Assembly (NCBI GenBank): GCA_038207085.1
Contig: JBBRAE010000012.1
Location: forward strand, 1 to 64,000
Length of the DNA: 64,000 nucleotides
Reading direction: 5' to 3'
Source of the DNA: Armatimonadota bacterium
GTDB lineage: Bacteria > Armatimonadota > UBA5829 > DTLH01
Shown: positions 22,447 to 36,247 of the stretch, piece after piece
How positions within the stretch are numbered: position 1 is the first letter of the stretch
Layout of the letters: each line of letters starts with the position of its first letter
Position numbers and translations under genes: made by a program
The notes under the pieces: model-generated
Databases searched by the model: none
What the model was told of the DNA's origin: nothing
What the model saw: the letters and a program-made list of their open reading frames with translations, nothing else

Positions 22447-23649
22447 TTACCAGTCGCTGTCCCCGAGGCCGAAGACATCGTCCCCTATGTCGCCAATGAG
22501 CACACGCCCGCCGGTCATCTTGGCGCTGACGATCGCTATGTCATCGCGAGCGCCGTCTATGGTGATGCTTTGGATGTGCTCACAGATGCGGTCAACCATG
22601 TCCTGGGCGTCGAGGTGGGCGTAGGATCTCGCGATGTCGGCGAATCGCTCTTCGCCGATTCTCTCGCCTGAGGTCATCTTGGACTCCGTTGCGCCGTCGG
22701 TGTAGAGCACGAGCACGTCGCCGTCGCGCATAACGGCGGTGGATGTCAGGTCTTGCGAGAACGAGTCTGAAACCGCGAGAATCGGCGCGGTCGGGCCTAG
22801 CAGGTCTATCACGTCGGAGCTGCGCCGGTAAATGAGACCTTCGAGGTGTCCGGCGTTGGCGTAATGCACCCTGCCGCTCCCAGGCTCGATCTCAGCATAG
22901 AAAAGCGTCACAAAGCGCTCGTCAGGAAGCCCCCGGCATAGCGCAGGGTTGAGATAACTGACCACTTCCCCACCCCGCAGGCCTCTGCGGTGAGCGTCCT
23001 TCAACAGATACTTGAGAAGCGCGGTGAAAAGCGCGGCGGGAGTACCTTTGCCGGAGATGTCACCGACGCAGACATAGACTCGGCCGTCTATCAATCCTAC
23101 GTCGACGAAGTCACCGCCTACTCGAAAGGCATTCTGGAGCCGCGCGCCGACCTCACAGCCCGGAACCGATGGCAATTCAAACGCAAGCAGCGCCTCCTGG
23201 AGCATGCCACCGGCGGAGGCGTCTTCATCGAGGCGATCATAGGTGTGCCTGAGCTCGACGTTGACCCTCTCAAGCTCCTCGGCGGATCGTCGCGCCGCCC
23301 GGTTGCTCTGGGCGAGGCGGACTGTGACTTCGGCCACAAACAGGTAGACGAAGAACCGCACGATAACCGAACTCACCGCCTGCAGTGGGTCCTGGTCACC
23401 GAGACGGATCAGCGAGATGTGGTCCAGGCACGTGGGAATCTCGGCAAACACCGCAGTCGACAGCGCTCCGCCCCTGCCAATCGCCCACGCGGCGAACGTT
23501 ATCGGCAGAAAATACACGATCGAAAAGTCGATCGTCGGCCCGGTCACGTAGTCGAGGAATGTCACGATGGCCAGAAGCGCGAGCGTGAGCAATACAGGCC
23601 TGATCTGACTCTTCATTTGAGAGTTTTGAAGCGGGTCGAGGTATTTCAT
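22447..23649 (-). CDS. Membrane-bound PP2C (SpoIIE/RsbU-like) phosphatase
   Basis: N-terminal TMs; VGGDF, GDISGKG, NAGH, LYTDG, DDIA motifs. Confidence 0.92.
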   Translation of the reverse strand: MKYLDPLQNSQMKSQIRPVLLTLALLAIVTFLDYVTGPTIDFSIVYFLPITFAAWAIGRGGALSTAVFAEIPTCLDHISLIRLGDQDPLQAVSSVIVRFFVYLFVAEVTVRLAQSNRAARRSAEELERVNVELRHTYDRLDEDASAGGMLQEALLAFELPSVPGCEVGARLQNAFRVGGDFVDVGLIDGRVYVCVGDISGKGTPAALFTALLKYLLKDAHRRGLRGGEVVSYLNPALCRGLPDERFVTLFYAEIEPGSGRVHYANAGHLEGLIYRRSSDVIDLLGPTAPILAVSDSFSQDLTSTAVMRDGDVLVLYTDGATESKMTSGERIGEERFADIARSYAHLDAQDMVDRICEHIQSITIDGARDDIAIVSAKMTGGRVLIGDIGDDVFGLGDSDW

Positions 23650-23757: not shown

Positions 23758-24444
23758 TTAGAATCGGAGCGCGTAACTTGCTCCAAATCCGATGCTATCG
23801 AAGTCGACCCAGCTCACGTCAAGCCGCAGATCTTTGGTAGCAGCATAACGCAGGCCGAAGTTTACCATGTTATCTTCGTCAAGCGCTGATCCACCACTCA
23901 AGTACTCGGCCATCACGCTGAGCTTGGGATTGTATGTCCAGTCCAGCCCTGCAAAGAGCCCATCATAGAACCCGCTGCCAAACCCGAGTGTGCCTACAAG
24001 CGGCTTGGATTCGCCTGCTACTTCCGTTGCAGTCCGGGTCAGGTTCTTGCTTACCAAGATATAGAGCGTCGGATCGTCATCAAGTGCGTTTCCAAGAAGA
24101 TCGATCACACCGACCGCCACCGCGGGCTTGGTGGCTGTCTCATCGACGAAGCGCCACTTGCCGTTGATCGCAACCTCGTTGTCATTTTCAGTATCAACGC
24201 CTGAGATGCCGACTTCAACGTTGGGAAGCAGACCAAAGTGGCCGTGCCAAACGTTGAGATCAGAGTCTCCCCCACCAACGTTTAGATCCTGAATTGAGTG
24301 ATACCCTACACTAAGACTGCCCTGGGGCACGGTCAGTGCATCGGGAGTCAGAATGTTGCCTGACGGTCCGAGATAACTTGGAGCCGCCATACCTGGAACC
24401 GCCAAAACGGCGACGAGTAAGCAATACGTACCTAATTTCTTCAT
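23758..24444 (-). CDS. Putative outer-membrane beta-barrel protein (YjbH-like)
   Basis: AGGAGG RBS, signal peptide MKKLG..., GPSGNILTPDA motif, C-terminal YALRF. Confidence 0.7.
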   Translation of the reverse strand: MKKLGTYCLLVAVLAVPGMAAPSYLGPSGNILTPDALTVPQGSLSVGYHSIQDLNVGGGDSDLNVWHGHFGLLPNVEVGISGVDTENDNEVAINGKWRFVDETATKPAVAVGVIDLLGNALDDDPTLYILVSKNLTRTATEVAGESKPLVGTLGFGSGFYDGLFAGLDWTYNPKLSVMAEYLSGGSALDEDNMVNFGLRYAATKDLRLDVSWVDFDSIGFGASYALRF

Positions 24445-24995
24445 CTCATTTTCCTCCTGAAGGAATTTTGCCGTCACCTGCACGGCGCTGTTAAGTCGCT
24501 ACCTGACTACAGTTTTCCCCAAATGACATAAATTAACAGCCTAACGGGGCAAAAAATAGTCACTTGCGCAGATTATTTTCACAGTCCGAGAATGACCAAG
24601 ATTGTAAGCTCGGTGGCGCATAGCGCCAGCCCTTTCGCAGCCTTTGGCTGCTGTCACAGTGGCGCATGCGCCACCGGGGTCGACAGCGGCGCTAGCGCCG
24701 CGATAGACCTTTAAGAGACGGCGCAGATAGCGCCGTCGATTCTGTATTGTGCCCTCCGGAAACACGTCACGGGCTCTCGTGTTCGCTTCTCGACCTCACT
24801 TGTCCAGATTGAATTGAACTGTATCCACACTATACCCAACTAGCTTTGCATTGAAATATAAGGTTATATGCTTCGCGCGCTTTATGATGGGGTATTAACA
24901 TGTTATAATGGAGCACGTCAGGAGCTGCGGCAAGAATATGCTTGGCGCGGCGTTTTTGTGCGTACATATCCCGCCCAGACCAGGAGTTTTGATCT

Positions 24996-25694
24996 ATGAA
25001 TCTCGAACAGGAGCAGCGTGACCACGGGTCAGGCGTCCTTATTGTTGTCGAAGGTATCGACGGATCGGGCAAGAGCACGCAGATCCACCTGCTGCACCGG
25101 TGGCTCGTAAGTGAGGGTTACAGGGTGTTTTTCAGCGAATGGAACTCGTCTGAGCTCGTCAAAGGCACGACCAAACTCGGCAAGAAACGTAAGGCGCTTA
25201 CACCGACCACCTTCAGCCTGATACATAGCACCGACTTCGCCGACCGCACCGAGCATCAGATCATTCCGGCGCTCAAGGCCGGCGCGATCGTGCTCGCCGA
25301 CCGGTATGTGTACACCGCGTTTGCCCGCGATGTCGCACGAGGGGTCTCCCCCAAGTGGGTGCGCAACCTTTATGAGTTCAGCGTCAAACCCGACCTTGCG
25401 TTCTATTTCAGGGTGCCACTTGAAGTATCGCTCGACCGAATTCTCACAGGCCGCGCCATGCTCAAATATTACGAAGCGGGGATGGACCTCGGACTTTCCC
25501 GAGACATCAACGAGAGCTTCAAGATCTTCCAGGAACGGATCATGAACCAGTATGACTCGATGGTCGACGAGTTTGGCCTGACGGTGATCGACGGCACGCG
25601 CTCGATTGAAGAGCAGCAGGCCCAGATGCGCCGGATAGTGGCGGGTCATCTGAAAAACCATGATGACATATACGGCCCGGGAAGGAAGGAATAA
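24996..25694 (+). CDS. Thymidylate kinase-like P-loop protein 1
   Basis: VEGIDGSGKST Walker A; ADRYVYT motif. Confidence 0.9.
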   Translation: MNLEQEQRDHGSGVLIVVEGIDGSGKSTQIHLLHRWLVSEGYRVFFSEWNSSELVKGTTKLGKKRKALTPTTFSLIHSTDFADRTEHQIIPALKAGAIVLADRYVYTAFARDVARGVSPKWVRNLYEFSVKPDLAFYFRVPLEVSLDRILTGRAMLKYYEAGMDLGLSRDINESFKIFQERIMNQYDSMVDEFGLTVIDGTRSIEEQQAQMRRIVAGHLKNHDDIYGPGRKE

Positions 25695-25695
25695 G

Positions 25696-26406
25696 ATGGC
25701 GCGTTTCAAGTTTTATGGCGAAGGCATTCCAGACGTCGACCTTGAGTCGCTTTCGGGGCGACTTATTGTGCTTGAGGGGCCGGACTCGGTGGGGAGATCC
25801 ACCCAGCTTGCACTTGTGCGCGACTGGCTTGAAAGCCGGGGGCACGCGGTCTCATACACCGGGCTCAGCCGCTCGGAGCTCACCCAGCAGGGGCTCGACC
25901 AGGCAAAAAGCGGGCATACGCTCGGCAGGAAGACCATGAGCCTGTTCTACGCGACCGACTTTGCTGACAGGCTCGAAAACCAGATAATTCCCGCGCTTCG
26001 GGCAGGGTATTACGTGCTTTCGGACAGGTATTTCTACTCCGTCTGCGCGCGCGACATCGTTCGAGGCGCAGACCGGGAGTGGCTCGAAGGGGTCTACGGA
26101 ATCGCGCTTGTGCCGGATTTGACGCTTTACCTGAGAGCCGAAGCCGAAGACATAGTCCCGCGCGCGCTTTATGGCAAGGGGTTCAACTACTGGGAAGCCG
26201 GGATGGACCTTGCGCTTGGAGATAACCTGTACGACAGCTTCCTTGCGTATCAGGCGAGGGTGATCGAACAGCTCGACCGGATGGCCGAGGGCTATAACTT
26301 CGTCACCATCGACGCCTCACGCGAGCCGCAGGAGATTTTTACGGACCTGCAAAACACCATCACGCCGATCCTGCCAAAGGAACTCGGCGCAGAGTTGGAG
26401 GTATAA
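25696..26406 (+). CDS. Thymidylate kinase-like P-loop protein 2 (Walker A Lys to Arg)
   Basis: LEGPDSVGRST; SDRYFYS; clear paralog of the upstream gene. Confidence 0.9.
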   Translation: MARFKFYGEGIPDVDLESLSGRLIVLEGPDSVGRSTQLALVRDWLESRGHAVSYTGLSRSELTQQGLDQAKSGHTLGRKTMSLFYATDFADRLENQIIPALRAGYYVLSDRYFYSVCARDIVRGADREWLEGVYGIALVPDLTLYLRAEAEDIVPRALYGKGFNYWEAGMDLALGDNLYDSFLAYQARVIEQLDRMAEGYNFVTIDASREPQEIFTDLQNTITPILPKELGAELEV

Positions 26407-26409
26407 CAA

Positions 26410-27723
26410 TTGACTGATTCGCCGATTGAGATAACAGGAACGACACCGCTTGGCGTCGCTGCACAGACGACCATCTCTGGGCTCACAAAGCAGATGATGG
26501 CGAACCTGCCCGGCACGCGTAGTGGCGCCGACATAGAGGCGCTTCATGACATGCGAGTCGCATCAAGGCGGCTTCGGGCGGCGCTTCGGGGGTTTTGCGA
26601 GGCTTTTGCGCCGGAGGCGCTTAAGCCGGTGGCAGATGAGGTCGGCTCCGTAACGCGGGCGCTTGGAGAGGCGCGCGATCAGGACGTCTTTATTGAGTTT
26701 TTACAGGGCTACGCCCAGGCCAACCCAGACCAGATTATCGTCTGGCTGGTTGAGCGCGAGGAACGCATCCGCGACGGGGCGAGGCTGCGCCTGCTCGATG
26801 AGCTTGAGAGGCTCGAAGAGTCCGACATGCCGGGGATTATCTCTTCGCTTCTGTCGGGGGCGCAGTTGGTAAGCGAAGACGGCTACGCGAGCTCGTTTGC
26901 GGCCCACGCCGAGCCGCTTATCCGCCTCAGGATGTCAAAGCTAAAGTCGCTCGGCAAAGCGATACATGACCCCAAAAACGTCGCGGAGCTTCACCTGATG
27001 CGCATCGCCGCAAAGCGGCTTCGCTACAGTATGGAGCTTTTCGTCCCGGCGTTCGGCAAAGATATGAGCGACAAGATCTCCGATGTTAAGCTCCTGCAGG
27101 AGCAGCTTGGGACCGTCCACGACTGCGATGTCTGGGTCGACAAACTAAATGGCTACCGCGAAGAGCCGGGCCTTGCTCCCGAGCGCCTCGCGGCGGTAGA
27201 CGCGGTCATTGACGAGCGCACGAAGAAGCGACAGGAGACCTACGCCGAAGCGCTCGCGCACTGGTGCGGACTTGAGAAGTCGGGGTTTGATAAAGGTCTC
27301 GTGAAGCTTGTATCTACCAAGCCAGCCAAGGTAAAGAAAGCTAATCAGGCGAAAGAAACGCCTGAAAGACCGGCAGTCGAAGCGCCAAAGCAGCGCGTGC
27401 CGAAAAAGAAGGAGACAATTATTATGCCCAAGCCTCCTACCGAAGTTGAACTTGCGCGCACGGCGGTCGAACAGGCTGCGTCAACGCTTCTGGTGGCGAC
27501 ATCTGGGTTTTCCAAGCTCGCAAAGCAGGTGGAACTGCTCGACGTGACACTTGTGGGGCTCCCCGAAGGCGATGCAAAGGTCGACAAGCGGCTGGCGAAG
27601 CTTCGGCAAGTGCTCGAAAGCCTGCCGCAGGATGGCGCAATCTCGGACAAAAAGGCTGAAAAGCTTGCAGAAGAGGTTCGTGCTATCCGAAAGAAGCTCG
27701 ACGCGGACGGGAGCCAGTCCTGA
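26410..27723 (+). CDS. CHAD domain protein with Lys-rich C-terminal extension
   Basis: LHDMRVASRRLRA, RDQDV, LHLMRIAAKRLRY, LGTVHDCDV motifs. Confidence 0.92.
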   Translation: MTDSPIEITGTTPLGVAAQTTISGLTKQMMANLPGTRSGADIEALHDMRVASRRLRAALRGFCEAFAPEALKPVADEVGSVTRALGEARDQDVFIEFLQGYAQANPDQIIVWLVEREERIRDGARLRLLDELERLEESDMPGIISSLLSGAQLVSEDGYASSFAAHAEPLIRLRMSKLKSLGKAIHDPKNVAELHLMRIAAKRLRYSMELFVPAFGKDMSDKISDVKLLQEQLGTVHDCDVWVDKLNGYREEPGLAPERLAAVDAVIDERTKKRQETYAEALAHWCGLEKSGFDKGLVKLVSTKPAKVKKANQAKETPERPAVEAPKQRVPKKKETIIMPKPPTEVELARTAVEQAASTLLVATSGFSKLAKQVELLDVTLVGLPEGDAKVDKRLAKLRQVLESLPQDGAISDKKAEKLAEEVRAIRKKLDADGSQS

Positions 27724-28655
27724 TGGTCAGGATAGCTGCGGGCATTGACGTGGGCACAAACTCGGTCAAGATCGCGGTCGGGAAGATCGAGCCCGATGGG
27801 GCGATCACCATTTTGCATGACTCAAGCGTAAACGTACGCCTTGGGGCGGGGTCGGATGCGACCAAGAGACTTCAGCCCGAGGGGCAGGAGCGGGCGATCG
27901 AGGCGCTCCGGGTACAGCTCGCCACCGCACGTGAGATGGACGTCGAAGCCGTGAGGCTCGTCGGCACAAGCGCGATCCGCGACGCCGAGAACCGTGATGA
28001 GTTTGTCGCCCGGGTCAAAAGTGAGCTTGGGGTCGAACTAGAACCGATCAGCGAGCAGGACGAGGCCCGATTGGCTTACCAGTCCGTCACTCTCGATCCA
28101 AAGCTCAGACACTACGACGGAGATCAGCTCGTGGTCGATATCGGCGGGGGTTCGACTGAGATGATATTCGGCAGGGGCGGCAAGACTACGCTTCGCGAGA
28201 GCCTGAAGATCGGCGCGGTGCGGCTGACGGAGCGGTTTCTCAAGCCCGAAAAAGGCCCTATCTCTCAGCTCGACGAGGCCGCCGCGTTTGCCGAGGAGAT
28301 GATTGCTGAACTTTGCATTGGGATGAGCGTCGGCCGCGTCGTTGGGGTTGGAGGAAGCGTCGTCAACCTCGCACGGATGATGATGGAAGTGTCCGTCGAT
28401 CACACAGAAGAGGTCCACACCGTCCCGATGAGCTACCGCGACATCCGCCAGTTGATGCACATGCTCTGCGCGCTTTCCCCCGAAGAGCGAAAGAAGCTCA
28501 TCGGCCTTGAACCGGAGCGCGCGGATATCATCCTCGGCGGCACTGTGATTCTCGAGCGCCTGCTTGCGTTGCTTGGAGCTGAGAGTATCGTCGTCTCGAC
28601 GCGCGGGCTCAGGCACGCGGTGCTTTACGAATTGTTGGGTAGCCATGCCGGTTAA
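27723..28655 (+). CDS. Ppx/GppA phosphatase, catalytic domains only
   Basis: IDVGTNS, TSAIRDA, EARL, DIGGGSTE, RADII, GLR motifs. Confidence 0.92.
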   Translation: MVRIAAGIDVGTNSVKIAVGKIEPDGAITILHDSSVNVRLGAGSDATKRLQPEGQERAIEALRVQLATAREMDVEAVRLVGTSAIRDAENRDEFVARVKSELGVELEPISEQDEARLAYQSVTLDPKLRHYDGDQLVVDIGGGSTEMIFGRGGKTTLRESLKIGAVRLTERFLKPEKGPISQLDEAAAFAEEMIAELCIGMSVGRVVGVGGSVVNLARMMMEVSVDHTEEVHTVPMSYRDIRQLMHMLCALSPEERKKLIGLEPERADIILGGTVILERLLALLGAESIVVSTRGLRHAVLYELLGSHAG

Positions 28656-29232
28656 ACGAGCATCTATTGAGGCATTCGCCGCAGGTTTTGACCACGACTT
28701 CGACCACGCAAAGCAGGTCGCGAAGATTTCGGGGGAGATGTTCGACGCCTGCCGTGAGCTGCATCGCCTGGGGAAACGCGAGCGCGAGCTATTGGTCTCC
28801 GCGGCGCTTCTGCACGACATCGGCTGGGTTGGCGGGCAGAAGAAACACCACAAACGCTCACTTGAGCTTATACTTGAACACGGGATCGACGGGGCATCGA
28901 ACCGGGACCTTGGGATCATCGCAAACGTCGCCCGCTACCACAGAAAGACGCTTCCCAAGCTCTCGCACGCCGATTTCGTTCGGCTTTCCTCCACCGATCG
29001 CAAGCTCGTGCAAAAGCTCGCAGCCCTGATCCGGGTCGCCGACGGACTCGACCGCACCCACCAGAACCTGGTCTCAGTTTCGACCTGTTCGGTATCGGGA
29101 AACACTGCTATAATCGGTGTTGAAACGAGCGCCGACGCAAGCCCTGAGTTTGAGACGGCACGAGAGAAGTCGGACCTGTTTTGGGAAGTCTTTGGGCTTA
29201 AAGTCGAGTTTCTCTCAAGCAATGGCGGTTGA
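28645..29232 (+). CDS. HD-domain protein (Ppx C-terminal-like)
   Basis: HAKQV, ALLHDIG, HHKRS, VARYHRK, LIRVADGLDRTH; overlaps the upstream stop. Confidence 0.88.
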   Translation: MPVKRASIEAFAAGFDHDFDHAKQVAKISGEMFDACRELHRLGKRERELLVSAALLHDIGWVGGQKKHHKRSLELILEHGIDGASNRDLGIIANVARYHRKTLPKLSHADFVRLSSTDRKLVQKLAALIRVADGLDRTHQNLVSVSTCSVSGNTAIIGVETSADASPEFETAREKSDLFWEVFGLKVEFLSSNGG

Positions 29233-29239
29233 CGGGACA

Positions 29240-29265
29240 GGGCGAACACATTGGTCCGCCCCTAC
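29240..29265 (-). repeat. GTAG-type REP, copy 2
   Basis: Reverse complement of 11479-11504 with 1 mismatch. Confidence 0.8.
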
Positions 29266-29316
29266 GTTTGGGATGGGCACAACGTCAGTTGAAACTCAGT
29301 AGATCGGCAGGATGCT

Positions 29317-30870
29317 ATGAGAACCATCGGGGCAATGGATATCGGCACAAACTCTATTCGGATGCTCGTAGTTCGGATCGAGGAGGGCCACGATTGCAGC
29401 GTGCTCTCGACCTACAAGGAGGTCGTTCGGCTCGGTGAGGGCGAGTTTACCCACAACAAGCTCACCCGTCCCGCTATGGAGCGGGGGCTTCTGGTCGTGC
29501 GCAAGTTCGCCGACATCGCCCGACGCTGGGGGGCCGAGAAGATCATCGCCGTCGCCACTTCAGCCGTCCGGGAGGCCCAGAACCGAGGCGAGTTCGAGGA
29601 GCGTGCGCTCTCCGAGTGCGGAGTGGACGTTCGGGTCGTCTCAGGAGTTGAAGAGGCGCGGCTTATCTACCTCGGAGTGGTTTCGGGGGTCGACATCGGA
29701 AGCTCGCGGGGGATGTTCATCGACATCGGCGGCGGCACGACCGAGCTGATCATCGGCGACCACCGCGACTACCAGTTCCTCGACAGCCTGAAGCTCGGCG
29801 CGATCCGCCTCGCAAACATCTTCCTCGCGGGAGAAACCGGGCCCGTGAGCAAGAGGAAATACCGCCAGATGCTCGACTACTCCAGGGGGGTCTCGAACCT
29901 CGCCGTGCGCAAAGTCAACGAGATCGGCTTTGACCAGGCCTACGGCAGCTCCGGCACGATTATGAACCTCGCCGAAATCACCGCCAAACGCAAAGGCGCA
30001 AGCGTTTCGAGCATGCGCAACTTCAACTTGAAGTATGATGACCTCGCGGAGACGATTCAGATACTCTGTGGGCTTTCGGTTGAGGAGCGGAGGAACGTTC
30101 CAGGGATCAACCCCGAGCGCGCCGATATCATCATCAGCGGCGCGGCTGTGCTCGACTCGATCCTGACGAGCGTCGGCGCACCGAGCATCACCGTGAGCGG
30201 CCGCGCGCTTCGCGAGGGGATCGTGGTCGATTACCTATTTGAAGAAGAACACGTCCGCGAGGAGTTCTTGCAGATATCGGCGCGCGAGCGGAGCATCATG
30301 CAGCTTGCCCGCACTTGCCACTTCGAGGAGGGCCACGCCGTCCGGGTGCGCGACCTCGCCGTCTCGCTCTTCAGGCAGCTAAGAGATATGGGCCTGCACG
30401 CCTACGGTGACGTCGAAGAGGACCTGCTCAGGCACGCCTGCATAACCCACGACATCGGCTCGTTCGTATCGCACACCAACCACAACAAGCACAGCTACTA
30501 TCTTCTGAGAAACTGGGATTTGCTCGGTTTCGACGACGAAGAGATCGAGATCATCGCGACGACTGCGCTATGCCACAGAAAGCTGACCCCCAAACAGGTG
30601 CGCGGCAAGAAGCTCGACGCCTCGGCGCTCAGGCTGGTTGAAGTGCTGACAAGCGTTCTGCAGGTCGCCGATTCGCTCGACATAAGCCAGCTCGACCTCG
30701 TAAACGATGTGGCCGTGCGAGACCACCGCGACGGCCGGATAATCCTCGAAATCTTCGCCAGGGGCGCATGCGAGCTTGAGATGTGGGCGCTTGAGCGCAA
30801 GAAACGGCTCTTTGAGCAGACGTTTGGCGTGAAGCTCGACGTAAGAGTTATTGTCGCTGGCGGCGGTTAG
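29317..30870 (+). CDS. ppx: Exopolyphosphatase Ppx/GppA, full length with HD domain
   Basis: MDIGTNS, ATSAVREA, EEARL, DIGGGTTE, HDIG, HNKHSYY motifs. Confidence 0.92.
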   Translation: MRTIGAMDIGTNSIRMLVVRIEEGHDCSVLSTYKEVVRLGEGEFTHNKLTRPAMERGLLVVRKFADIARRWGAEKIIAVATSAVREAQNRGEFEERALSECGVDVRVVSGVEEARLIYLGVVSGVDIGSSRGMFIDIGGGTTELIIGDHRDYQFLDSLKLGAIRLANIFLAGETGPVSKRKYRQMLDYSRGVSNLAVRKVNEIGFDQAYGSSGTIMNLAEITAKRKGASVSSMRNFNLKYDDLAETIQILCGLSVEERRNVPGINPERADIIISGAAVLDSILTSVGAPSITVSGRALREGIVVDYLFEEEHVREEFLQISARERSIMQLARTCHFEEGHAVRVRDLAVSLFRQLRDMGLHAYGDVEEDLLRHACITHDIGSFVSHTNHNKHSYYLLRNWDLLGFDDEEIEIIATTALCHRKLTPKQVRGKKLDASALRLVEVLTSVLQVADSLDISQLDLVNDVAVRDHRDGRIILEIFARGACELEMWALERKKRLFEQTFGVKLDVRVIVAGGG

Positions 30871-31065
30871 AGTCAGTTAGACTCGCAATGGCCGAGATCA
30901 TTTACGAGATTGCTCCTGAGCGCAAAGAAGTATGAGGACTTTAGTCCGGGGAGTGGGCTTCTGCCGACTGAGCGGGAGTAAACTCCCTTGTTGTTCTTTG
31001 CGTGCGCGATGAATATCGCACACGATCACCGACGCGCCTTCGTCAGAGTTAGTTACACTCGGATA

Positions 31066-31094
31066 TTGACGGGGAATAATGATGGTGATACACT
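31066..31094 (+). promoter_or_regulatory. Sigma70-type promoter of the TA operon
   Basis: TTGACG-17 nt-TACACT. Confidence 0.6.
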
Positions 31095-31125
31095 GTAACC
31101 ACTAAGTGAGAACGCAGGTGCTACC

Positions 31126-31353
31126 ATGATCAAAAAACTGACCAAACACGGCAATAGCGCGGCACTTGTCATCGACAAGGCGATACTGGACCTTTTGAAT
31201 ATCGACACGGATACGCCGCTTGAAATATCCACCGACGGGCGCGCGCTTATCATATCCCCGGTGCAGGATGATGAGCGACGGAAGAAGTTCCGTTCGGCTC
31301 TTGACGAGGTTAACCGCGAGTACTTCGACGTGCTTCGAGACTTGGCTAAATAG
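31126..31353 (+). CDS. AbrB/MazE-family antitoxin
   Basis: KKLTKHGNSAALVID swapped-hairpin motif; immediately upstream of Doc. Confidence 0.9.
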   Translation: MIKKLTKHGNSAALVIDKAILDLLNIDTDTPLEISTDGRALIISPVQDDERRKKFRSALDEVNREYFDVLRDLAK

Positions 31354-31354
31354 A

Positions 31355-31741
31355 ATGGAACCGATATTCCTCGAACTCGACGAAATTCTTGAAATCCACA
31401 CCGACGAGATCAACCTGCACGGAGGTTCGCTCGGCGTTCGCGATACCGGGTTGTTGCTTTCAGCTATTGCGGCGCCAAGAGCGACATTTGGCGGCGAATA
31501 CCTGCACACCGACGTGTTTGAGATGGCTGCAGCCTATTTGTTTCACATCGTGCAGAATCATCCGTTTGTCGACGGCAACAAGCGGACGGGTGTTGCTGCG
31601 GCACTGGCTTTTCTAATTTTGAACGACGCACGAATAAGAGCGGACAAGGAAGCGCTGAAGGAATTGGTTTGGAAACGGGCGCAAGGGCTGGTCGAAAAGA
31701 GCCACATTTCCGAGTTCTTCAGAAATTCGCGCGGAGCCTGA
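31355..31741 (+). CDS. doc: Doc (death-on-curing, Fic family) toxin
   Basis: HPFVDGNKRTG motif; GVRD.GLL.SA motif. Confidence 0.93.
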   Translation: MEPIFLELDEILEIHTDEINLHGGSLGVRDTGLLLSAIAAPRATFGGEYLHTDVFEMAAAYLFHIVQNHPFVDGNKRTGVAAALAFLILNDARIRADKEALKELVWKRAQGLVEKSHISEFFRNSRGA

Positions 31742-35731: not shown

Positions 35732-36247
35732 TTGCCGACGGTTGAGATTGAGGTTAGCCCGGAGTTTATCATAGACATGCGCCGCAATATCGTGAAGAAA
35801 CGCTCAGCGGCGGAGGTGGTGATGGTCGCCCCTCGGACAGGCGGCACAGTGCTGCTCCACACCAAGGCGTTCTATCCGCCGGACACGTTCAGGCTGCCCA
35901 CGGGTAGGCTCCACTTCGAGGAAAACCCGGACGAGTCGTTTTTCAGGGAGTACCGCGAGGAGCTCGGGCACGACGCAGAGCTCGATCGCAAGCTCGGAGT
36001 CGTGGTGCAAAGGCTGATCTCAGGGGACGAGTCGCTTGATTTCACCTCGCACGTGTATCTTGCCAAACGAAGTGACGCGCCTCCGGTCCCGGAGGACACC
36101 TCAGAGCAGATAACGGAGTTTATCGAGGTATCGGTCGCGGGGATTCGGGATACGGCAGAGAAGCTTCGGAACATGCCGGAGGGATGGAGCGATTGGGGCA
36201 AGATGCGGGCGGCGGTGCACGACTTTGTCGCCGAAGAGCTCACGTAG
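35732..36247 (+). CDS. NUDIX hydrolase
   Basis: LPTG.....E.......REYREELG Nudix box; GGAGG RBS. Confidence 0.85.
   Translation: MPTVEIEVSPEFIIDMRRNIVKKRSAAEVVMVAPRTGGTVLLHTKAFYPPDTFRLPTGRLHFEENPDESFFREYREELGHDAELDRKLGVVVQRLISGDESLDFTSHVYLAKRSDAPPVPEDTSEQITEFIEVSVAGIRDTAEKLRNMPEGWSDWGKMRAAVHDFVAEELT

Follow-up and report, generated by a model that had tools for sequence, protein, structure and literature searches.

The first 64,000 nucleotides of contig JBBRAE010000012.1 (assembly GCA_038207085.1), hereafter the window, derive from an Armatimonadota bacterium and carry two adjacent genes, A and B, which encode thymidylate kinase (Tmk)-like P-loop proteins and are followed directly by genes for a CHAD-domain protein and for exopolyphosphatases of the Ppx/GppA family (Table 1). 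Comparative sequence analyses make it highly probable that the products of A and B together make up a polyphosphate kinase of family 3 (PPK3), each being one of its two subunits. PPK3 is an already known system, described in a preprint in 2024 (10.1101/2024.08.28.610084) and in a paper in February 2026 (Hofmann et al., J Biol Chem 2026; PMC12995831). The original prediction for the window pair, namely that it forms a heteromeric polyphosphate (polyP) kinase composed of an active and a degenerate subunit and not a deoxythymidine monophosphate (dTMP) kinase, finds support in homology, synteny and phylogenetic profile, and describes an arrangement already published for Saci_2019 together with Saci_2020 of Sulfolobus acidocaldarius (Hofmann et al., 2026).

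According to the accessible text of that paper, to which all statements on the Sulfolobus enzyme (SaPPK3) made here are limited, two proteins that carry thymidylate kinase annotations, Saci_2019 (cPPK3) and Saci_2020 (rPPK3), together constitute an alpha2beta2 polyphosphate kinase. The activity of cPPK3 alone is approximately 10-fold lower, Saci_2020 alone is inactive, and neither protein displays dTMP kinase activity as judged by 31P nuclear magnetic resonance (NMR). Both genes reside in an operon of the order sixA-ppx-saci_2019-saci_2020-CHAD, in which the CHAD gene is saci_2021. The PPK3 clade is described as consisting mainly of bacterial Tmk paralogues encoded in genomes that hold a canonical tmk elsewhere, with PPX and CHAD as common neighbours (Hofmann et al., 2026).

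Relationship of the window pair to PPK3

Over an alignment of 195 residues, the products of the two genes share 42% identity (E = 6e-53), a degree of likeness that indicates paralogy and not chance, and in this respect the pair is as first described: two paralogous P-loop genes separated by 1 nt. The shared motifs quoted in that description are likewise present in the sequence (STDFADRTEHQIIPALKAGAIVLADRY and YYEAGMDLGL in A; ATDFADRLENQIIPALRAGYYVLSDRY and YWEAGMDLAL in B), as is the Walker A motif of B, GPDSVGRST, in which Lys is replaced by Arg (Arg34). Gene A encodes the motif TDFADR as well as the P-loop GIDGSGKST (K26), the triplet D102-R103-Y104 and a basic lid (R148, R153, K157), the last three of which are invariant or nearly so in its family, and its product fits cPPK3 on every sequence criterion. 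The product of gene B retains D110-R111-Y112, in the context L-S-D-R-Y.

When both proteins were compared with the sequences of solved structures, the best match in each case was ST1543/STK_15430 of Sulfolobus tokodaii (PDB 2plr, 4nzy, 4rzx, 5h70). For A, this match (2plr/5h70) reached 195.6 bits (E = 6.8e-57, residues 12-217) as compared with 56.3 bits for the best canonical Tmk, and for B it reached 135.2 bits (E = 2e-38) as compared with 37.3 bits. Because both proteins match ST1543/STK_15430 far better than any canonical Tmk, and because STK_15430 is named as a cPPK3 homologue (Hofmann et al., 2026), the pair is most readily placed within PPK3. The motifs EGIDGSGKS, TDF.DR and DRYIYTA.ARD are common to ST1543 and gene A. 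An AlphaFold2 model of B (predicted local distance difference test score, pLDDT, 81.9; predicted template modelling score, pTM, 0.82) also points to ST1543, chains of which make up all of the 8 best PDB matches (target-normalised template modelling scores of 0.85-0.90, 35-36% identity), followed by canonical Tmks at 20-28% identity. ST1543 differs from the window pair in being an archaeal protein of 213 aa, in having been deposited as a dTMP kinase, and in that its structures contain no partner subunit. A quick maximum-likelihood tree (58 rows, two partial rows having been dropped) unites the A-type proteins in one clade of 23 rows (Shimodaira-Hasegawa-like approximate likelihood ratio test, SH-aLRT, 97), and the B-type proteins make up the remainder, with the canonical Tmk of the same genome placed on a long branch (1.14) apart from both.

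The window genome (3.35 Mb in 83 contigs, rated 100% complete) encodes that canonical Tmk on another contig (G000:C2:80327-80878), so the pair is not the only tmk candidate that it holds; had it been the only one, the original prediction would have been refuted. The 210-aa open reading frame (ORF) concerned scores 174.1 bits against Pfam Thymidylate_kin (PF02223) and 178.1 bits against TIGR00041. Canonical bacterial Tmks have their fold, P-loop, DRY motif and PF02223 match in common with A and B, but the PF02223 scores of the pair are considerably lower (81-81.2 bits for A; 55.1-57.2 bits for B), and the CEPGG stretch that follows strand 2 in canonical enzymes is absent from both proteins, being replaced by FSEWNSS in A and by YTGLSRS in B. 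Additionally, B scores 55.8 bits against TIGR00041, below the equivalog cut-off of 83.25. By these measures the pair falls outside the canonical Tmk family, and since the sources consulted name A- and B-like proteins dTMP kinase or thymidylate kinase, the assignment to PPK3 would call for a correction of annotation.

The pair is also distinct from the PPK2 family: neither A nor B matches Pfam PPK2 (PF03976) at E<=0.01, and TIGR03708 yields only a 17-bit match at the P-loop. A two-domain class II PPK2 (e.g., PA3455 of Pseudomonas aeruginosa), although a member of this different family, combines an active module with an inactive paralogous oligomerisation module, an analogy drawn by Hofmann et al. 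(2026) and one with which the natural A-B fusion protein described below may be compared.

Taken together, the window locus resembles that of SaPPK3 in several respects. Firstly, both consist of adjacent Tmk-fold paralogues, one with a full catalytic set and one degenerate. Secondly, the order c-r-CHAD within an operon containing ppx is common to both, as are a separate canonical tmk and the absence of PPK1. Thirdly, the catalytic subunit has conserved basic residues that its partner does not retain, as reported for the basic cleft of c, but not r, subunits (Hofmann et al., 2026); the basic columns conserved in the A family alone are K56, K64, R65, R123, R153 (borderline in B), K157 and R212. 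Net charge follows the same division, at 0 for A and -13 for B in the window and at family medians of +4 and -7, respectively. The differences are that the window subunits are 42% identical to one another, the published range for c versus r subunits being 22-38%; that the window operon lacks sixA and contains two Ppx loci, one of them split; that B retains DRY and carries a P-loop Lys-to-Arg replacement, while rPPK3s are reported to have the Arg of the DRX motif replaced; and that the host belongs to the Armatimonadota and is a sediment bacterium of mesophile type.

By analogy with the Sulfolobus enzyme, A would catalyse the reversible transfer of a terminal phosphate between ATP/ADP and polyP (polyPn + ATP <-> polyPn+1 + ADP) by means of its P-loop, DRY motif, lid and basic cleft, and B would be a paralogous, non-catalytic partner that joins A in an oligomer and stimulates its activity, the part played by Saci_2020 towards Saci_2019. 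The CHAD-domain protein would bind polyP and the two Ppx systems, one of them split, would release phosphate from it, such that the co-translated A-B pair, CHAD protein and two exopolyphosphatases could be viewed as an operon for polyP turnover. In each of these proposals it is from the comparisons presented here that we infer the activity, the A-B complex and the direction of the reaction in vivo.

Conservation of the pair across bacteria

Scanning by pattern, with each species represented by one genome, yielded at least 601 stretches, of which at least 555 were confirmed, indicating that the PPK3 family is common in bacteria, with members in at least 555 species-level genomes. The best 80 of these loci, to which all counts of related loci refer, are exclusively bacterial, and their records bear the labels Chloroflexota, Acidobacteriota, 'Deltaproteobacteria', Binatia, Nitrospirae, Eremiobacter, Melainabacteria and Chthonomonadales (approximately 8 phyla). 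Gene B lies directly 3' of gene A in 79 of the 80; the sole locus with A and no B after it, on a Melainabacteria contig (L029, 719-1453), is followed by a gene for an S49 peptidase, encoded on the opposite strand. CHAD or Ppx genes are found in the fetched flank at 49 of the 80 loci (CHAD at 38, Ppx at 35 and both at 24), and this linkage is repeated among records bearing the labels of several phyla. The P-loop Lys is present in A at all 80 loci, and the combination of G[IV]DGSGKST with DRY is seen in 115 of the top 120 A-family homologues.

A profile search with the B family identified, at E<=1e-30, 462 proteins that each represent a 50%-identity cluster, including a natural A+B fusion in which the second P-loop is degenerate (P0241) and two three-part fusions (P0258 and P0276) in which a cPPK3-type domain is joined to a degenerate Tmk-like domain and, at the C-terminus, to an HD domain resembling Ppx domain III. 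A physical A-B complex gains indirect support from these fusions, from the spacing of 1 nt and translational coupling of the two genes, and from their constant adjacency. A further protein, P0288, appears to be a three-part fusion as judged by its length and domain scores only.

Distribution of PPK1, PPK2 and PPK3

That the cluster itself contains neither ppk1 nor ppk2, as had been noted from the sequence, was borne out by a Pfam scan of 45 window ORFs, in which no PPK1 or PPK2 domain was detected. Extension of this search to the whole genome gave a divided outcome: PPK1 was not found with either PF02503 or TIGR03705, but PPK2 proved to be present on other contigs. One full PPK2 gene scores above the TIGR03707 cut-off (373.1 vs 301.8), and a second encodes a single-domain protein whose best match is the C-terminal half of polyP:AMP phosphotransferase. 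A third PPK2-like stretch (G000:C18:59667-60128) covers profile positions 83-224 only, has an internal TGA, and by its sequence is best described as a PPK2 fragment or pseudogene. With two PPK2s in the genome, PPK3 is not the sole polyP kinase here, a situation unlike that of most PPK3 genomes, which are stated to lack both PPK1 and PPK2, and like that of an Armatimonadota genome listed in Data S1 of the same paper with PPK1=0, PPK2=2 and PPK3=1 (Hofmann et al., 2026).

Phylogenetic profiling, suggested alongside the original prediction as a check, was carried out on a phylum sample of 151 genomes of at least 85% completeness. PPK3 was detected in 27 genomes and PPK1 in 66, with an overlap of 0. 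PPK2 was detected in 82 genomes, accompanying PPK3 in 24 of 27 cases and PPK1 in 57 of 66, and occurring in only 1 of the 58 genomes with neither; the remaining 57 genomes lack all three. This association of PPK2 with most PPK3 genomes differs from the published remark cited above. Both states are found within single families, in different genomes: f10 (8 PPK1 and 1 PPK3 of 9), f27 (3 and 1 of 4) and f18 (3 and 4 of 13). Among 41 close relatives, a set that includes the window genome, the A-B pair occurs in 9, all with at least two Ppx matches. PPK2 is present in 8 of the 9 genomes with the pair and in none of the other 32, the exception being a genome that is 73% complete. CHAD follows the same 8 of 9 and 0 of 32 distribution, and in the one exception the pair lies where a contig of 5.7 kb ends. 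PPK1 occurs in 2 of the close relatives, both without the pair.

This pattern fits PPK3 standing in for PPK1, a replacement already proposed from neighbourhood similarity (Hofmann et al., 2026). Since the window genome lacks PPK1, since no genome of the phylum sample has both PPK3 and PPK1, and since PPK2 accompanies either, PPK3 may here fill the role of PPK1, the polyP synthase, with the two PPK2s acting as polyP-consuming nucleotide kinases. A possible but doubtful alternative is that the pair functions as a polyP-consuming ADP kinase only, serving as an energy buffer as proposed for Sulfolobus, and that polyP is made by a PPK2 operating in reverse. SaPPK3 does show a strong preference in vitro for making ATP out of polyP, producing polyP only at a high ATP/ADP ratio with recycling of ATP, and PPK2 enzymes able to synthesise polyP are mentioned in the introduction of the same paper (Hofmann et al., 2026); one PPK2 of the window genome, as noted above, exceeds the TIGR03707 cut-off. 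However, the finding that 81 of 82 PPK2 genomes also hold PPK1 or PPK3, taken with the absence of any overlap between PPK1 and the 27 PPK3 genomes, fits a PPK3 that replaces the synthase PPK1 better than one that duplicates the role of PPK2. The profiles thereby point to PPK3 as the synthase and turn the direction of flux into a testable question.

Weighing the assignment

Several observations weigh against the assignment of the pair to PPK3, or against a synthase role for it. The score of A against TIGR00041 (90.3 bits) lies just above the dTMP-kinase equivalog cut-off, and ST1543 was not only deposited but also first published as a dTMP kinase. At 31 of the 80 related loci, no CHAD or Ppx gene was found in the flank by tblastn, and a Pfam check of 8 of these 31 showed them to be bordered by unrelated genes. 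The enzyme assayed in the accessible text of PMC12995831 is that of Sulfolobus only and not a bacterial PPK3, and the mark given there for rPPK3s, replacement of the DRX Arg, is not found in gene B, in which the degenerate position is the P-loop Lys. Given the preference of SaPPK3 for ATP formation in vitro, it is from the profiles that we infer a synthase role in vivo. In those profiles PPK3 was called with a single protein query, B, at E<=1e-40, and the Fisher p value of 2.8e-8 for the phylum sample overstates the signal because related genomes are not independent.

Some of these observations would be expected if A and B were genuine (deoxy)nucleoside monophosphate kinases, acting for example on dTMP or a modified nucleotide, that lie beside polyP genes by chance: the TIGR00041 score of A, the dTMP kinase titles of the ST1543 entries and the 31 loci without polyP neighbours are all points in its favour. 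Such an explanation is nevertheless very improbable, as it must contend with the canonical tmk elsewhere in the genome (178.1 bits), with the replacement of the CEPGG stretch in both proteins, with the lack of dTMP kinase activity of Saci_2019 and Saci_2020 as measured by 31P NMR (Hofmann et al., 2026), and with the recurrence of the CHAD/Ppx linkage across records bearing several phylum labels. It also leaves the mutual exclusion of PPK1 and PPK3 without explanation.

Degeneracy of the partner subunit

With the pair read as PPK3, gene B suits the part of a degenerate partner but lacks the published mark of rPPK3s, the replacement of the DRX Arg that is given as the reason for their inactivity (Hofmann et al., 2026). 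The bacterial partner would thus be degenerate in a manner other than that stated for rPPK3 in the accessible text. Among the top 120 B homologues, 118 contain G.D..GR[ST]T, and D-R is retained in all of the DRX variants listed. At the related loci, the P-loop Arg is present in 77 of 79 B genes and D-R in 74 of 79, counts made by regular expression such that the other cases (2 for the P-loop and 5 for D-R) are simply unmatched by the expression. R111 is invariant in an alignment of 20 B sequences. B-type representatives of the 50%-identity clusters have either Arg or, in 6 rows, Cys at the position of the P-loop Lys. B also changes faster than A, with a median identity to the window protein of 55%, as compared with 69% for A, at the related loci.

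The conservation of the P-loop Arg and of its frame is not what would be expected from the decay of a dead site. It raises the prospect that B holds a second functional site, either as an allosteric sensor of nucleotide or polyP or as the seat of a phosphotransfer of its own (e.g., to AMP or GDP), and that the bacterial enzyme works unlike SaPPK3. In keeping with this suggestion are the invariant P-loop residues G28, D30, G33, R34 and T36, the retention of D110-R111-Y112, R119, R123 and the lid residue R156, and the near constancy of the Arg itself in the homologues and loci counted above, as well as the inhibition of SaPPK3 by ADP and by high ATP, which renders regulatory nucleotide binding plausible (Hofmann et al., 2026). 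The occurrence of Cys in 6 B-type rows, however, is contrary to a phosphate-contacting role. B moreover lacks four basic positions that are strict in A (K56, K64, R65 and K157), is acidic, and evolves faster than A. Replacement of the Walker A Lys by Arg usually abolishes phosphotransfer. Together with the inactivity of Saci_2020 alone (Hofmann et al., 2026), these data make a second site of this kind in B unlikely, and a non-catalytic partner that activates A remains the preferred interpretation.

A broader proposal, put forward tentatively and with less confidence than the assignment to PPK3, is that in Armatimonadota lacking PPK1, PPK3 is the in vivo polyP synthase that replaces PPK1 and feeds PPK2-type kinases, and that the bacterial B protein represents a distinct kind of rPPK3 with a working ligand-sensing pocket made up of the Arg P-loop, DRY and the lid Arg. 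If true, a working pocket in B would imply a form of regulation not described for the Sulfolobus enzyme in the accessible text. What the present analysis holds beyond the main text of PMC12995831 is a partner with a P-loop Arg and an intact DRY, the exclusion of PPK1 and PPK3 with PPK2 beside either, and a conserved split Ppx.

Four proteins within the A clade, P0315 (Margulisbacteria, to go by how its homologues are named), P0379, P0358 and P0341, keep the P-loop Lys and have the D-R of DRY changed to NK, NK, EQ and DG, respectively. Judging from their sequences, they constitute a second, apparently independent kind of degenerate Tmk-like PPK3 paralogue, and there seems to be more than one route to a degenerate partner.

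Organization of the operon and its flanks

The pair leads directly into CHAD and Ppx genes, as had been claimed for it, and the order A-B-CHAD-Ppx(N)-Ppx(domain III)-Ppx forms a translationally coupled chain (Table 1). The gene 5' of A (23758-24483, minus strand) is divergent, so gene A heads the operon. An AGGAG lies 9 nt ahead of the ATG of gene A. The TAA of gene A (25692-25694) and the ATG of gene B (25696-25698) are separated by a single nucleotide, and GGAAGGAAGGA stands immediately 5' of the start of gene B. An in-frame ATG at 25660 was not taken as the start of gene B, as M1, G8 and G10 of the protein beginning at 25696 are invariant in the B-family alignment of 20 sequences. The CHAD gene follows after 3 nt and begins with TTG, preceded 8 nt upstream by GGAGG; its stop overlaps the start of the Ppx N-terminal gene in TGATG. 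The latter gene overlaps the Ppx domain III gene by 11 nt, and 84 nt separate this third downstream gene from the full-length Ppx gene.

Table 1. Genes of the A-B-CHAD-Ppx operon, with positions as numbered in the window.
Feature	Position	Strand	Description
Gene A, cPPK3-type catalytic subunit (probable)	24996-25694	+	232 aa; Tmk-fold P-loop kinase
Gene B, partner (rPPK3-like) subunit (probable)	25696-26406	+	236 aa; N-terminus MARFKFYG...
CHAD-domain protein	26410-27723	+	437 aa; Pfam CHAD 165.7 bits, residues 24-246
Ppx/GppA N-terminal (domains I-II) protein	27723-28655	+	310 aa; Pfam Ppx-GppA 204.1 bits; TIGR03706 252.2 bits
Separate Ppx domain III/HD protein	28645-29232	+	~195 aa from ATG 28645; Pfam Ppx-GppA_III 71.8 bits, HD 33.6 bits
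Full-length Ppx/GppA exopolyphosphatase	29317-30870	+	517 aa; Pfam Ppx-GppA 212.7 bits and domain III 92.5 bits; TIGR03706 266 bits

The first Ppx is divided into two genes, one for domains I-II and one for domain III/HD. It occurs as two separate ORFs in 4 of 4 genomes examined (including loci L101, L102 and L105), lying in different frames in 3 and being interrupted by a same-frame stop codon in 1, and its maintenance across genomes indicates a conserved split and not an assembly frameshift. In another relative (L103; G033:C22, 10526-13603), the first ~134 codons of ppx are present three times at a spacing of 768 nt before a complete full-length ppx, with three Ppx-GppA matches, reflecting either a tandem duplication or an assembly artefact. 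The CHAD protein of the window ends in a C-terminal tail of ~190 residues (~250-437; window 27150-27723) that is rich in Lys, Glu, Ala and Pro and is without a Pfam match.

A search of positions 24300-31400 against Rfam returned no match at E<=0.1, and a consensus scan for promoters and terminators returned 5 promoter-like sites as compared with 2.3 expected, none of them convincing. By eye, an extended -10-like sequence that is not in the list from that scan, TGTTATAAT, was noted at 24901-24909, ~87 nt 5' of the ATG of gene A. The Pfam scan of window ORFs revealed no pst or pho genes. On the 3' side the operon is flanked by a Fic/DOC-domain gene (31220-31741), and unrelated genes intervene between the operon and a NUDIX gene (35732-36247). 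Further 5', on the other strand, lies a gene (22447-23649) for a PP2C phosphatase of the SpoIIE type that has a membrane region at its N-terminus.

Lastly, the intergenic region 5' of gene A contains four GGCGC-N2-5-GCGCC palindromes within 120 nt (24615-24734), in comparison with 5 matches, against 1.39 expected, in the whole 64-kb window. Two matches are found 5' of the pair in one relative (L103), and no comparable cluster is seen at the other loci. The cluster could represent an operator array or a local repeat.

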